The translations under genes and the position numbers were made by a program. Below the pieces are notes generated by a model. The model was not told the DNA's origin. It saw only the letters and a program-made list of their open reading frames with translations, and ran no database searches. Below are positions 58,606-63,851 of a stretch of 64,000 bases of DNA, in pieces; position 1 is the stretch's first letter, and every line of letters begins with the position of its first letter. This DNA is from Escherichia phage EO1, in sequence record OQ223305.1; one strand, written 5' to 3'.

Positions 58606-59262
58606 TTATTTAGCCCTTCCTAATATTCTGGCCGCCTGAGCACATATTGATTCAAGGCGGTCATTACTTATATGATCATTTCTATACCAGTACATAGTTA
58701 TCGTTCCAGCATAGATATTATCCAAATTAAAATATGGACAACTGTACATGTAGTTTATTTCGGGAGTAGGCTTTTTAGTTGGTAAAAAAGCAAATTTTGA
58801 GTTGGAATAATAATGACGTCCATTTAAATGAACTGTATATTCATCCATAGTTTTATCAACAGGATATCCTCCAAGTGATTTTTCACTTATTGTTGAAGGT
58901 AATTTTCCTTCATATGCTATAATATCAACAAAATAGTTTAAGTTTTTAGGGCGGAAAGAATACACCGCACTAAAGTCTGCCTCAGATGATATATGAACTA
59001 TCTGGAGTTGTTCCAGGGCGACAGATTCAAAGCGTGCATTTCTTTCCTTTTCAATAATTTCACTGTATGTTTCATACTTTGATTGCTTATAGTACTCAAA
59101 GAAACTATCTCCCCTATACCAAACAATCGCCATTATAAACAAAAGAATTACGACAGCTACCCGGGAAGCAAGAACATTCCCGGTAGCGTTATCTTTGAAC
59201 AAGCGATCTAGAACACCCAACAGAATATCAGAGGGCGAAAATGATATTCTAGGTACTGCCAT
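58606..59262 (-). CDS. t: holin T (218 aa)
   Basis: 218 aa; one N-terminal transmembrane segment and large C-terminal domain; late promoter TATAAATA and AGGAGG SD upstream on the minus strand. Confidence 0.85.
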   Translation of the reverse strand: MAVPRISFSPSDILLGVLDRLFKDNATGNVLASRVAVVILLFIMAIVWYRGDSFFEYYKQSKYETYSEIIEKERNARFESVALEQLQIVHISSEADFSAVYSFRPKNLNYFVDIIAYEGKLPSTISEKSLGGYPVDKTMDEYTVHLNGRHYYSNSKFAFLPTKKPTPEINYMYSCPYFNLDNIYAGTITMYWYRNDHISNDRLESICAQAARILGRAK

Positions 59263-59280: not shown

Positions 59281-59288
59281 TATTTATA
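59281..59288 (-). promoter_or_regulatory. late promoter (TATAAATA) for holin t
   Basis: Minus-strand TATAAATA (plus-strand TATTTATA at 59281-59288), followed by AGGAGG SD and the ATG at 59262. Confidence 0.7.
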
Positions 59289-59307
59289 TGCTGAGAGGTA
59301 TTACCAT

Positions 59308-60087
59308 TTAAATCCAGGAACCGTAGATCGTGCCTGTTGCACCCCATGATGGTGAAGAACCAAATACCGCTCTACCTGGAGCACCACCGCCGGATCTAGA
59401 TAAGTGATTACCCCATCCATCTCCACCCCGACCTCCAGCATCACCGCCATTGCCTCCGCCGAATTGGGAAGTGTAACCGGCACCGCCCGGGGCGTCATAA
59501 CTAGCATTACCACCCGGCCAATTAACGCCGCCTCCGCCGATGCCAAATGGTCTACCACCACCGCCACCTGCTGTAGCATTTGGCGCCCAGCTATTCTGTA
59601 ATGACACTGCACCACCACCACCGCCGCCTGATGCAATAACGCCATAGTTCCAAATACGAAGTCTTCCGCCGATATCATTTTGGATTACATCGCCGCCATT
59701 TGTGCCTGGGTTTCCGTTTACAGTACCGTTACCACCTCGTCCCCACATATGAACTCCACCATGAATATTCAAAGTAACATATTCATTTGGCGTATCGCCA
59801 TACATAAAGAATAATGGAACATCTTTACTATATGATACCAAATTTCCGGTGATATTAAACACTATAGGTGCACTACCTGCCTCAAAACATCTATCTCGGA
59901 ACCATTGACCATTGAAGTTATGGTCTGCTCCAAGCGTGTGAATAATTTCTCGTGAGCGACCTGCAAATTGACTCATCCAGCAAGGAACACCCAATCTTAA
60001 TTGACCAGCCGCTTGACTCATCCAGCGCTGTCCAGTTTCATTTGCGGCTGAACTTCCAATCCAACCAGGAACACTAACTACTGCCAT
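59308..60087 (-). CDS. 38: receptor-recognising adhesin gp38, T2-type with glycine-rich motifs (259 aa)
   Basis: Poly-Gly tracts ([39 protein letters not shown]) separating variable segments; immediately downstream of gene 37. Confidence 0.8.
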
Positions 60088-60123
60088 AATTTATACTCCA
60101 AAGGGGGCGTTGCCCCCTTGTTG

Positions 60124-63100
60124 TTAGAATTTAAAATATTTACTAATTTTTCGAGCAATTTTAGTAAAGAAAGGCGTTTTCAATTCTTTAATTTCCTCAC
60201 TCATTTCCTGAATAGCCTTAATTAAAAGAGCATTCACAGCAGAGTTAGAAATTGTCAGAACATCAGATCCATCAACTTCAACTTTAGATACAGCTTCCAG
60301 TAATTCCTTTTCAAGGTCCTGAGCAATAATACCAACTTCACGTTTAATAACACTACGGTCTTTAATAGACTTAACTTTATCGTAAGTATAAACTTTCAGA
60401 CGGCATACTTTTTCAAGTGCTCCGTTTTCTAACTCTTCTTTATTAATCTTAAGACGATCATCAGAACGAATATAAACATCGTTAAAGTTACCATTACCAG
60501 GACAGTAAAAAGTACCATCATGATGGAACTCGAATACAGCTTGAGGATGACCAGCCGCTGGCGAGTTCTCCGCAGATCCAACACGAATGATTGCTTGCCC
60601 CCAATTTTGAGGAACACGACGCATACCAAAATCTACGGCAGTTGTATATCCTTGATTGGTGATTAAACTTCTGCCTTTAATAATTGGATAATAGCTATCC
60701 GGTCCAACATAGCCATGATCGACGAATATCGGAGCTTCTAAGCCCCATTGGTCGTTCCAACCTCCAGATTGACTAGCAGTCCAACGTTCACCATGAACAT
60801 AGAATCGAACGTTATTGACATGAGTCATTTCGATGCCTTTTGGACTTAGCGCGATATCCCCTCCGTTTGTAATGTATATACCGCCTTGCGTAACGTAACT
60901 GTAAAAACCTAGACCATTGTTTGCGCCACCTTTACCAATATACCAATTATTGACCCCGGCCGTATCAGAACGAATAAATGATGAATCACTGGCCAAAGGA
61001 GGATTAAGAACTATTCCAGCAGCATCTTTATTAATCCAAAGAGCGCCGGTCATCGTATCGCCTTCTTTGGCAACACGAGTAGCTATTGCATCACGAATAT
61101 TTGTAGTGTCTCCCGCAGAAGTAAACGTTTTCCAAATATCCGAGAAAATATTACCATTGCGAGCAATAGTAGCTTCACCGCCGCCGACCTGAACGTTATT
61201 GGGGAAATTAACTGTACCATCAGCATTAAATCTTGATGTATGGCCCTGTGATCCATCTTCTTTCAGATGATGTAAAACAAATGTACCCGAATTAATTTCA
61301 GTACCTAAAGACCAAACAGCTTTACTGTTTAAAAACTTCTGTTTAACAATAGGATAATATTTACTTACTGCGTCATCATCGATTTCCTGGAAAATAGGAG
61401 CTGCTTGAACATATTGAATATCATAACCACCAGCGCCTGCGCCGTGACCAGTAAATTTAATATAGCCGTTTGCTGCGAACGTATTGTAACTTGATTGTAA
61501 ATCTGGAATAGTAACTTTACCGGTATCTAAAGCCATACTAAACGGGCGAAGTGGACCGATATCACCATGTTTACCTTCACCATAAGCAGTTGGAATAATA
61601 TGAAGACTACCTTCTGAACGTCTAAAAATGGCTCCATAATCTGCATTCCAAATGCGAAGTGCATTCACAGCCCCAGATGAAATTTCGCCTGTTGTGTGAA
61701 CTCCTCTATTTCCAGCAGTAACACCAGATGATTCAAATGAACCGTTAACGTTCATTTCTATTTCACCGGTAGTAAGTCTTTGAATATAGCTCATCCAGCT
61801 AGTTGCATCGGAAATTTCCATGACATTTTTGCGATTACCTTCGCTAGGATTAGTAAATGTATTACCCCACACAGAAATTGTCATGTTATCCACAGAACTA
61901 CTACCTGTTGTGTTACCTCTAAACATCAGTGTAGAAGCATTATTTCTACCATCGATATTAACAGAACCACCAATAACGTCAATATTGCCTGGAGTAACTA
62001 ACAAACCGCCGTGAGTATTAATGTTTGTAGTGCCCTTGCCGCGGAAATAATGATGATAGTTACCGCCTTGATAATATCCTAAAAGAGTCTGACCATCTCC
62101 AAACGCGTTATTATCATGATATGTAACAACAGTAGCAAGAGCATAATTTTCAGTTGGAGGAGTAGTTAAATCGGTTCCGTTAGTAGAATATCCAGCTACA
62201 AATTTTCTTAGGCTAGTTGTTTCGCTAGGACTAAATAAAAACGTTTTTGTTCCATTATTAACGCTAAAATAATATCCATCTTGATGCCATTTAAATCCAG
62301 TATCATTATCTCCTAAAGCAATACTAGATGGTCCTAATATTGAATAATCTTTATTACCAGGTGTTAAACCAATAGAAATTGAGTGACTTGATTTAATTCC
62401 GCCGCTCCAAGTAAATGACCAAAGATAGGTGTCAAGTCCATCACCTGCATACCAAGTTATTCCATCATTATCTTTAACTTCATGGAAAATACCAGAACCA
62501 ACGGCATTACGCATGACACGAAGATGATTAATAGCAGTAGTGCTTTCAGACAATGGAACATTGTCTGCCATCGAATAGATGTCATAATCACCCGTAGATT
62601 TATTATTAGTAATGACTTTGTTGGTCAGAATTTGTGGAGACGAAATAGATTTCCATGCTGATACTTCAGGTGAAGTAAATAGTCCACTGCCTGAAAATGC
62701 ATAAGTGCTTTCGCTACCAGCGGCGTAGTCTTGAACCCTGATATTAAGTACTTGTGTAGTTAAACCATCATTAGCCGGGGCATAAATGATTCCGCGTTCG
62801 CGACTATTGTTATCGAAAAAACGAACATGCGCTGTACCTGAACTTTTTGTAATAAGTTCTCCGCCTTCAGTCATAATCTGCCCGGCGGCAATAATATCGC
62901 GAGTTACTCGAGCAATACCAGTTAAATTAAAATTACCAGTCTGAGTGAAGACGCCATTTAAAGTATAATCGCCAGTTTGGTTATAATTGCCTGTATGAAT
63001 AACATTCCCGTCAATACTACCGCCTTTAGCAAAACCCAGATCAATAATATTTCCTTGGTCATCTTTAGTAAAAAGTACACGGTCTTTTAAGTTTATAGCC

Positions 63101-63186
63101 AATTCACCTTCGGCTAATACTGAAGCGGCAGGACGTGCTCCTGCAGTTTTGCTTCTTTTAAATTGTATTTGTTTTAAAGTAGCCAT
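60124..63186 (-). CDS. 37: long tail fibre distal subunit gp37 (1020 aa)
   Basis: 1020 aa; N-terminus MATLKQIQFKRSKTAGARPAASVLAEGELAINLKDRVLF; order 36-37-38. Confidence 0.9.
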   Translation of the reverse strand: MATLKQIQFKRSKTAGARPAASVLAEGELAINLKDRVLFTKDDQGNIIDLGFAKGGSIDGNVIHTGNYNQTGDYTLNGVFTQTGNFNLTGIARVTRDIIAAGQIMTEGGELITKSSGTAHVRFFDNNSRERGIIYAPANDGLTTQVLNIRVQDYAAGSESTYAFSGSGLFTSPEVSAWKSISSPQILTNKVITNNKSTGDYDIYSMADNVPLSESTTAINHLRVMRNAVGSGIFHEVKDNDGITWYAGDGLDTYLWSFTWSGGIKSSHSISIGLTPGNKDYSILGPSSIALGDNDTGFKWHQDGYYFSVNNGTKTFLFSPSETTSLRKFVAGYSTNGTDLTTPPTENYALATVVTYHDNNAFGDGQTLLGYYQGGNYHHYFRGKGTTNINTHGGLLVTPGNIDVIGGSVNIDGRNNASTLMFRGNTTGSSSVDNMTISVWGNTFTNPSEGNRKNVMEISDATSWMSYIQRLTTGEIEMNVNGSFESSGVTAGNRGVHTTGEISSGAVNALRIWNADYGAIFRRSEGSLHIIPTAYGEGKHGDIGPLRPFSMALDTGKVTIPDLQSSYNTFAANGYIKFTGHGAGAGGYDIQYVQAAPIFQEIDDDAVSKYYPIVKQKFLNSKAVWSLGTEINSGTFVLHHLKEDGSQGHTSRFNADGTVNFPNNVQVGGGEATIARNGNIFSDIWKTFTSAGDTTNIRDAIATRVAKEGDTMTGALWINKDAAGIVLNPPLASDSSFIRSDTAGVNNWYIGKGGANNGLGFYSYVTQGGIYITNGGDIALSPKGIEMTHVNNVRFYVHGERWTASQSGGWNDQWGLEAPIFVDHGYVGPDSYYPIIKGRSLITNQGYTTAVDFGMRRVPQNWGQAIIRVGSAENSPAAGHPQAVFEFHHDGTFYCPGNGNFNDVYIRSDDRLKINKEELENGALEKVCRLKVYTYDKVKSIKDRSVIKREVGIIAQDLEKELLEAVSKVEVDGSDVLTISNSAVNALLIKAIQEMSEEIKELKTPFFTKIARKISKYFKF

Positions 63187-63194
63187 AAGTCCTC

Positions 63195-63851
63195 TTAATA
63201 ATAGCCGAAATCTTGAACAGAATCCTTAATAACAATTTGGTCAAATCGTGGAACATGCGAGGGTTGAGATGCAGGATTCTGTGAAAAAAGGTTTGGCGCA
63301 GTTAAATTTCCTGTCATAGTGTCTCCAGAGCGTAATACCCTAGAGTTTGCGTTTGCGGTAACAATATTTATTGCTCCATCAACATAATCTTTCCGCGTAA
63401 GGTCATAATTATTTACTGGTGATAACGAAGTTACACGGATTTGTGATGCTTCAATTACGCCCTTTGAACTAATATCTCCGTTTCGCGTGTTAATTACTAC
63501 AGTTCTACCTGCTGCCCCTTGTGATGATTTAAAGCCGATACCATACCATGAAACAATATCCATATTTGTAGTATCATATGTGGCATTATCACCAGGACCG
63601 GCAAAAATGCCGTTGTCACCTGACCCAGCACCAGGAACAGTCATTCCTTTATTAAAAATTACTTTATTTAAATAAGTACCACCATTAGCTTTAGAAACGA
63701 AATCGTTATCAGTTGCTTGTGGTTTATTATATTCTGAATATATTTTAAATGATTTATAGAGTACATCGTCACCGGCTGGATTCAATGGAAAATTTCCTTG
63801 ATGCCAAATGACAGAGCCTCCAGTTGTTGAACCTACTTTTAAATCAGCCAT
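63195..63851 (-). CDS. 36: long tail fibre distal connector gp36 (218 aa)
   Basis: 218 aa; late promoter TATAAATA (rc at 63875-63882) upstream; precedes gene 37. Confidence 0.8.
   Translation of the reverse strand: MADLKVGSTTGGSVIWHQGNFPLNPAGDDVLYKSFKIYSEYNKPQATDNDFVSKANGGTYLNKVIFNKGMTVPGAGSGDNGIFAGPGDNATYDTTNMDIVSWYGIGFKSSQGAAGRTVVINTRNGDISSKGVIEASQIRVTSLSPVNNYDLTRKDYVDGAINIVTANANSRVLRSGDTMTGNLTAPNLFSQNPASQPSHVPRFDQIVIKDSVQDFGYY

Follow-up and report, generated by a model that had tools for sequence, protein, structure and literature searches.

The question raised by gene 38 of Escherichia phage EO1 is whether it encodes a gp38 of the T4 type or of the T2 type and, in the latter case, which receptor the protein recognizes. 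The gp38 of phage T4 is a tail fiber assembly chaperone that is absent from the virion and unrelated to the T2-type adhesin (the RB69 record carries a similar note), although its gene has the same name and the same place downstream of gene 37 as the EO1 gene. We examined the locus in a window of 64,000 nucleotides of the EO1 sequence (OQ223305.1), by which we mean the whole stretch of DNA analyzed. Our reading, to which we assign a probability of about 0.88, is that gene 38 encodes the monomeric long-tail-fiber tip adhesin of a T4-like (Tequatrovirus-type) coliphage, of the kind found in T2, T6 and S16, and that this adhesin most probably recognizes OmpF.

Part of the answer is already known. 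The exact 259-amino-acid protein is present in GenBank as WDS52262.1, the “tail fiber adhesin” of EO1, from a 166,941-bp contig; this annotation is correct, and publications already cover the gene and its family, the class of its structure and the receptor used by identical alleles, so that the locus carries little weight as a discovery. EO1 is a sewage isolate from Seoul which plates on Escherichia coli O157:H7, on K-12 and on Shigella, but not on Salmonella Typhimurium, and its announcement reports the host range and names no receptor (PMC10281158). The added value of the present analysis lies in a specific and testable OmpF call for an O157:H7/Shigella phage without a reported receptor, which, with its switch residue Q208, can help in the design of phage cocktails and in anticipating ompF-based resistance. 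Furthermore, the locus offers a clean example of modular exchange, in which the receptor-binding domain is one independently assorting module and the attachment domain, with the adjacent gp37 chaperone domain, is another.

Gene 38 (59308..60087, minus strand), assigned from the ORF listing and from the Pfam, PDB and GenBank matches, is an intact, full-length reading frame from ATG to stop, with 259 codons before the stop codon. The coordinates and the length given by a sequence-only reading of the window proved exact, and the strand, which that reading had left out, is the minus strand. Glycine accounts for 64 residues of gp38 (24.7%), 52 of which fall within residues 111 to 259, and runs of four or more glycines are exactly three (G6 at 154 to 159, G5 at 174 to 178 and G4 at 184 to 187), accompanied in the same region by 11 shorter GG or GGG runs. 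The G+C content at 59300-59750 rises to 55 to 56%, compared with about 30% in the flanks, because of the GGN codons. Two further ORFs overlap gene 38, one of 125 amino acids at 59301..59678 (minus strand) and one of 65 amino acids at 59404..59601 (plus strand), and both are regarded as spurious products of a stop-poor, GGN-rich sequence of high G+C content. Since a local G+C content of 56% against about 30% is able to generate long spurious frames, gene 38 itself might be viewed as a compositional artefact of its glycine richness, or as a decaying gene. However, the frame is intact and preceded by an SD sequence (GGAG, 60096-60099) located 8 nt 5' of the ATG, its product scores 279 bits against the curated Pfam model GP38, and its receptor-binding part shows many synonymous changes and zero replacements with respect to related phages. 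The chance that the frame is an artefact or a decaying gene is thus negligible, and this explanation can be considered already ruled out.

The match to GP38 (PF05268; 3.9e-83, with a cut-off of 25 bits) aligns residues 47 to 259 with positions 1 to 218 of the 218 in the profile, and residues 1 to 42 match Gp38_N (PF21721) with 1.5e-19 and 70.1 bits (cut-off 25). No other family was found for gp38 in Pfam at E<=0.01, and in particular no family of T4-type assembly chaperones. Among the PHROGs, gp38 belongs to phrog_2056 (“tail fiber protein; host specificity”, 8.2e-110). A second PHROG, phrog_1121 (“tail fiber adhesin”, profile length 181), covers only residues 1 to 87 (59827-60087, minus strand; 6.8e-25), a partial match that points to a family of shorter adhesins, which would resemble gp38 in the attachment domain and the first part of the beta-helix and differ from it distally. 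The NCBIfam library contains no family for gp38, but it is aimed at bacterial annotation and is uninformative here.

Only two relatives were detected by sequence in the PDB, namely, the receptor-binding domain of PP01 gp38 (9v85; 3.2e-73) and S16 gp38 (6f45_D; 2.3e-47). An AlphaFold2 model of gp38, built with 59 homologues, has a mean pLDDT of 85.8, with the strands of residues 49 to 115 above 90, and is weak only at residues 1 to 19 (pLDDT below 50). This low confidence at the N terminus is expected because the gp37 partner is absent from the model, and docking through the N terminus, which would follow by analogy with S16, gains no support from the model itself. When the model was compared with the PDB by Foldseek, 9v85 was retrieved with a TM score of 0.92 by target and an rmsd of 1.5 Å over 218 columns, and 6f45_D with E = 8e-21 and probability 1.00; besides these two, nothing was found in the PDB at E<1, the next match having E = 2.5. 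The predicted fold is thus that of a beta-helix joined to a polyglycine-II sandwich.

The gene context agrees with this assignment. On the minus strand the order is gp36 (63195..63851), gp37 (60124..63186), gp38 and holin t (58606..59262), so that gene 38 immediately follows gene 37 and precedes t. Gene 37 encodes the distal subunit of the long tail fiber, of 1020 amino acids (phrog_1699; Pfam Gp34_trimer, gp37_trimer and Peptidase_S74), which gp38 would cap. Residues 908 to 1020 of gp37 (60127..60465, minus strand; Pfam Peptidase_S74 at 908 to 966) form an intramolecular chaperone domain with a predicted cut after R907, in the motif DVYIR^SDDRLK at residues 903 to 913, which includes S908. 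At the equivalent site of S16, DLNVS^SDRRIKK, autocleavage releases a 113-residue intramolecular chaperone and exposes the docking face for gp38, and Salem et al. predicted DVYIR^SDGRLKI for Yersinia phage fPS-2 (PMC7917993).

A T4-type role for gp38, in which the protein would help gp37 to fold and would not enter the virion, is the alternative on which these data bear most directly. Several GenBank records of close homologues are labelled “long tail fiber assembly catalyst” or “chaperone”, labels that have been carried over from T4, and a possible chaperone step before attachment is mentioned in the fPS paper (PMC7917993). Nevertheless, a protein of 259 amino acids that matches only GP38 and Gp38_N in Pfam at E<=0.01, and that is homologous to the S16 gp38 crystallized on the gp37 tip (6f45), does not fit this role; moreover, gp37 brings its own intramolecular chaperone domain, and the RB69 record states that the unrelated “gp38” of the T2 subfamily is the adhesin. 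We looked for a short gp38 of the T4 type, and only adhesin matches emerged from the Pfam, PDB and fold searches. Given the family, the fold, the C-terminal chaperone domain of gp37 and the gene context, practically no credence is left for a T4-type chaperone, which at the sequence level is ruled out. The sequence-only reading had proposed the T2/T6 arrangement with gp38 as the adhesin, and both Pfam adhesin models, the PDB relatives, the fold, the gp37 chaperone domain and the gene order agree with it.

Adopting the domain names of PMC12892980, gp38 can be divided into three parts. Residues 1 to 48 (59944..60087, minus strand; Gp38_N at 1 to 42) correspond to an N-terminal attachment domain and linker, predicted to dock on the tip of the gp37 trimer; three tryptophans are conserved here, W9 and W22 in 90% or more of 59 homologues and W37 in 80% or more of 118 aligned sequences. 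Residues 49 to 115 (59743..59943, minus strand) make up a conserved beta-helix domain, in which 59 to 67 of the 67 residues are identical in the gp38 of phages of other receptor classes (59 to 64 with respect to T6, M1, AV119 and FL08). Residues 116 to 238 (59374..59742, minus strand), delimited through the glycine columns and the superposition on PP01, correspond to the glycine-rich polyglycine-II sandwich with five receptor-recognition loops.

All five loops lie on the minus strand and were delimited by their variability across 117 homologues. They are loops A (residues 122 to 129, TVNGNPGT; 59701..59724), B (residues 161 to 173, between the G6 and G5 runs; 59569..59607), C (residues 185 to 200; 59488..59535), D, or HVS3 (residues 203 to 212, containing Q208; 59452..59481), and E (residues 221 to 234; 59386..59427). 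In the HMMER alignment, these five variable segments map one-to-one onto loops A to E of PP01, which span W119-I124, Q161-V170, N184-W189, N204-Y209 and N225-S231, with loop E as the main contact to OmpC (PMC12892980); loop A of EO1 aligns with W119-I124. Between the loops, the glycines of the runs at 154 to 159 and 174 to 178 are invariant or nearly so across 117 homologues, as are those at positions 116, 118, 119, 121, 128, 131, 132, 140 and 149 and at positions 182, 185, 201, 212, 214, 215, 218, 221, 235 and 238, and the five high-entropy segments fall between these glycine columns.

This arrangement modifies the picture of three polyglycine tracts separating variable segments, which had been drawn from the sequence alone. 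The three long runs are real, but they flank no more than loop B and the beginning of loop C, and the family has about ten glycine motifs and five loops. The adhesin was described as five GRMs and four HVSs by Trojet et al. in 2011 (PMC3157838), and ten polyglycine motifs around five loops are attributed to Dunne et al. (2018) as cited in PMC7917993.

The inter-glycine segments were then aligned with the gp38 of phages of known receptor, as had been suggested for this locus. By tblastn against 50,697 phage records, among which EO1 itself is absent, the closest gp38 is that of vB_EcoM_G2540 (99.6% identity), followed by those of ChristianSchoenbein (Bas46), fPS-2, phage 132 and phiC120 (98.8% each), FL33 (96.9%), AugustSocin (Bas38; 94.2%), AlbertHofmann (Bas47; 93.8%), RB51 and RB68 (92.8%) and RB69 (92.4%). 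Over residues 49 to 259, with all five loops, EO1 gp38 is identical to its counterparts in RB69, G2540 and phage 132; N82D is the single difference from RB51 and I183L the single difference from Bas46, three to four residues outside the loops distinguish Bas38 and Bas47, and FL33 shows four changes in loop C. Counted loop by loop from A to E, the identities with RB69 and Bas47 are 8/8, 13/13, 16/16, 10/10 and 14/14, and loop C matches that of FL33 at 13/16 positions.

The loops of phages with other receptors are clearly different. With respect to T6 (Tsx) and to M1, AV119 and FL08 (OmpA), matches amount to 0 to 3 per loop (1 to 3 of 8 in loop A, 0 to 2 in loop B), with the exception of loop C, which shares 10/17 positions with the OmpA phages AV119 and FL08, and of loop E, which reaches 7/14. 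T6 and M1 have the same attachment allele as EO1 (45/48 and 47/48, respectively) and the same glycine scaffold, but share only 1 to 7 residues per loop and use other receptors. S16 gp38 (6F45) is built of the same three parts, an attachment domain, a beta-helix and a polyglycine-II sandwich that bears the distal loops, but is only 45% identical, carries other loops and recognizes Salmonella OmpC. PP01 gp38 (9V85), a comparison that rests on the 9v85 sequence only, is 63% identical and superposes at 1.5 Å over 218 columns, but its loop sequences are unrelated from loop A on, and PP01 binds the OmpC of O157. The gp38 of wV7 had been considered as a PP01-like, OmpC-binding example and was dropped, since it groups with AV119 and FL08 (OmpA) and differs from the PP01 protein of 9v85.

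The loops of EO1 gp38 are, instead, those of OmpF-dependent phages. OmpF was identified by RB-TnSeq for RB51, RB69, Bas38, Bas46, Bas47, CEV1 and K20 (bioRxiv 10.64898/2026.04.02.716166, supplement), and it is the receptor listed in the S-table of the BASEL collection for Bas38, Bas46 and Bas47, with ompF complementation for Bas47. FL31, FL33 and FL34 require OmpF (Lutz 2025; PMC12032242), RB69 and RB51 require OmpF together with FhuA and a full LPS core (Trojet et al.; PMC3157838), and fPS-2 and fPS-90 depend on OmpF and the LPS core, with ompF complementation (PMC7917993). As the OmpF-specific gp38 subgroup we consider RB69, RB51, K20, CEV1, Bas38/46/47, FL31/33/34 and fPS-2/90. RB69 (a Mosigvirus) and RB51 (a Tequatrovirus) share with EO1 the same five loops and the same Q at the position that switches between OmpF and OmpW, and differ from it in the adjoining gp37 chaperone domain, which is only about 29% identical. 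In fPS-2, which unlike EO1 was isolated on Yersinia pseudotuberculosis, Gp246 is the gp38 that is 98.8% identical to that of EO1 (95.8% at the nucleotide level between the genes); Gp245, its gp37, is the best match of EO1 gp37, with 92% identity over the full length and the remaining 8% different, and the two share the predicted cleavage-site type DVYIR^SD(G/D)RLK.

A single residue deserves attention. In HVS3 of RB51, the substitution Q206L is required for a change of receptor from OmpF to OmpW and brings it about on its own (bioRxiv 10.64898/2026.04.02.716166). The corresponding residue of EO1 gp38 is Q208, encoded by CAA at 59464-59466 (RB51 numbering equals EO1 numbering minus 2), and, judging from the aligned sequences, it is in the OmpF state of the switch. 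We also noticed that the GenBank gp38 sequences of RB51 (FJ839693) and RB68 (KM607004) are identical, and that Q206L, which the preprint (bioRxiv 10.64898/2026.04.02.716166) gives as the cause of the OmpW specificity of RB68, is therefore absent from the deposited RB68 record; either the stocks or the record differ.

A T2-type adhesin could still have a primary receptor other than OmpF on its natural host, with OmpW, OmpC or an LPS epitope as candidates, or could strictly need a further factor such as FhuA. The single substitution in HVS3 that retargets RB51 to OmpW gives some weight to this hypothesis, as do the FhuA and LPS-core needs of RB69 and RB51 (PMC3157838), the mapping of fPS-2 resistance also to LPS-core genes (PMC7917993) and the binding of OmpC by PP01, whose gp38 is the nearest solved structure. 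However, the PP01 loops differ throughout, the LPS-core dependence of such phages is ascribed to the short tail fiber gp12 or to indirect effects, and Q208 is in the OmpF state; above all, the five loops are identical to those of RB69, RB51 is one non-loop residue away, and both phages depend genetically on OmpF in independent studies. We therefore consider a different primary receptor quite improbable. The confidence in OmpF, derived from the identity of the loops with those of OmpF-dependent phages and from Q208, is high but not experimental, and EO1 itself would be expected to depend on OmpF. A receptor predicted from sequence is in principle a fragile call, as one loop residue can switch the specificity, but the EO1 loops are identical, and not merely similar, to those of the reference phages. 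Whether OmpF is the sole requirement is less certain, and OmpF may not suffice, given the FhuA and LPS-core needs of RB69 and RB51.

The proposal that the inter-glycine segments determine receptor specificity holds across the family, where it has been published (PMC3157838, PMC12032242, PMC12892980, bioRxiv 10.64898/2026.04.02.716166); within the clade of EO1 it finds no variation to act on, as the loops do not vary there.

On the basis of S16, PP01 and fPS-2, it is possible to outline how the OmpF-directed adhesin may work. The gp37 chains would trimerize with the aid of their own C-terminal intramolecular chaperone domain, which would then cleave itself after R907 (DVYIR^SDDRLK), and one copy of gp38 would dock on the exposed tip of the trimer through residues 1 to about 42, including W9, W22 and W37. 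The rest of gp38 would fold into the beta-helix, made of residues 49 to 115 and of the C-terminal strands 239 to 259, and into the polyglycine-II sandwich of residues 116 to 238, whose conserved glycine motifs would hold the five distal loops, so that loops A to E could contact the extracellular loops of OmpF. Once several fibers are reversibly bound, the baseplate would be triggered to rearrange, and the short tail fibers would then bind the LPS core. The cleavage of gp37 and the presence of gp38 on the mature fiber tip are predicted here by analogy with the S16 structure (6F45) and with the analysis of fPS-2.

Within the OmpF clade, apart from the few replacements in the receptor-binding domain listed above, all the differences in gp38 fall within residues 1 to 48. 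The attachment allele of EO1 is common to G2540, Bas46, FL33 and phage 132, and also to T6 (45/48) and M1 (47/48), whereas RB69, with an identical receptor-binding domain, carries a different attachment allele (24/48). As T6 and M1 share the attachment allele of EO1 and differ from it in loops and receptors, the attachment and specificity modules assort independently, as described by Trojet et al. (PMC3157838). One residue of the EO1 attachment domain is peculiar, namely, S5 (codon at 60073-60075, minus strand), which is Gly in 9/9 close relatives and is Ser also in the deposited EO1 protein.

The boundaries of nucleotide homology are consistent with this modularity. By blastn, homology to RB69 and Ec_O157kw stops at 60001, at about codon 29, and homology to Bas38 stops at 60088, at the start codon, while for FL33 and phage 132 it runs into the gp37 chaperone domain, to about 60490-60500. 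The chaperone domain (residues 906 to 1020 of gp37) is 96% identical to that of G2540, 69 to 75% to those of Bas46, FL33 and phage 132 and 25 to 31% to those of Bas38, RB69, AV119 and Ec_O157kw. The N-terminal allele of gp38 thus covaries with the adjacent chaperone domain (96% and 75% versus about 30%), and the 55 residues of gp37 that precede the cleavage site do not follow this pattern. From the blastn breaks and the identities of the chaperone domain, we conclude that the gp37 chaperone domain and the gp38 attachment domain travel as a unit, apart from the receptor-binding domain, in agreement with Trojet et al. and Salem et al. (PMC7917993); the linkage between the two may be physical, as they are encoded by adjacent DNA, and not functional.

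Upstream of this unit, in the gp37 of phages other than fPS-2, residues 1 to 896 are about 90% identical to those of EO1, and the sequences diverge after them. The EO1 gp37 is mosaic and short, with 1020 amino acids compared with 1073 to 1109 in most relatives, and both EO1 and G2540 lack about 85 residues (…SAGGGDPAWGG…DNDTGL…) that precede the chaperone domain in RB69, AV119, Bas38 and Ec_O157kw.

The receptor-binding domain is, by comparison, strongly constrained. In the 211 codons after residue 48, 14 to 30 nucleotide differences separate EO1 from phage 132, RB69 and G2540, with 0 amino acid changes, a pattern of strong purifying selection, acting on the very segments that are termed hypervariable at the family level. 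The Nei-Gojobori method returned 0 to 3 “non-synonymous” steps for these identical-protein pairs, which derive from multi-step codon paths (for instance, between Ser AGY and TCN codons), and direct amino acid comparison was used instead; the row for Ec_O157kw was discarded, being misaligned between proteins of different lengths.

In the phage collection, which does not include EO1, gene 38 has its best DNA match at 97.2%, and the 24-kb flank reaches about 95% with its best matches, for example Ec_O157kw and AV119; the gp38 of AV119 is of the OmpA type. It is possible to hypothesize, although we regard it as unlikely, that the OmpF-binding residues 49 to 259 are a frozen cassette (dS of about 0.1 to 0.2, with no replacements) that has spread over Tequatrovirus and Mosigvirus and has been joined to at least three alleles of the attachment domain and gp37 tip; the rare combination found in EO1, with a short, fPS-2-like gp37 and the unique S5, might then alter the geometry of the fiber or the host range (E. 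coli O157, Shigella, Yersinia) and leave the receptor unchanged.

The intercistronic regions on either side of gene 38 contain further elements. Between genes 37 and 38, the folding of minimum free energy (MFE) and the comparison with relatives identify a candidate RNA element (60096..60130, minus strand). Its core is a GC hairpin, GGGGGC-AAC-GCCCCC, at 60102-60118, which lies between the gp37 stop codon (60124-60126) and the gp38 ATG (60085-60087) and adjoins the SD sequence; the MFE fold also has an outer stem, formed by AUUCUAA at the gp37 stop codon and the SD-containing UUGGAGU. The element has an MFE of -15.5 kcal/mol (z = -3.2), and 0 of 200 shuffled sequences fold as well. A hairpin occurs at the same place in G2540, Bas46, FL33, phage 132, Bas38 and RB69, but its stem and loop sequences differ, with UUCG tetraloops in RB69 and Bas38. 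The hairpin may thus belong to a conserved RNA element that stabilizes the mRNA or couples gp38 translation to the termination of gp37.

A scan for sigma-70 promoters and terminators gave only background counts (5 promoters versus 5.1 expected, and 2 terminators versus 1.3). The late genes of T4 use a promoter type other than sigma-70. Between the gp38 stop codon and the start of gene t, TATAAATA, the T4 late-promoter consensus, occurs at 59281-59288 on the minus strand, some 20 nt before the SD and start codon of that gene, and it is kept in 6/6 of the relatives compared.
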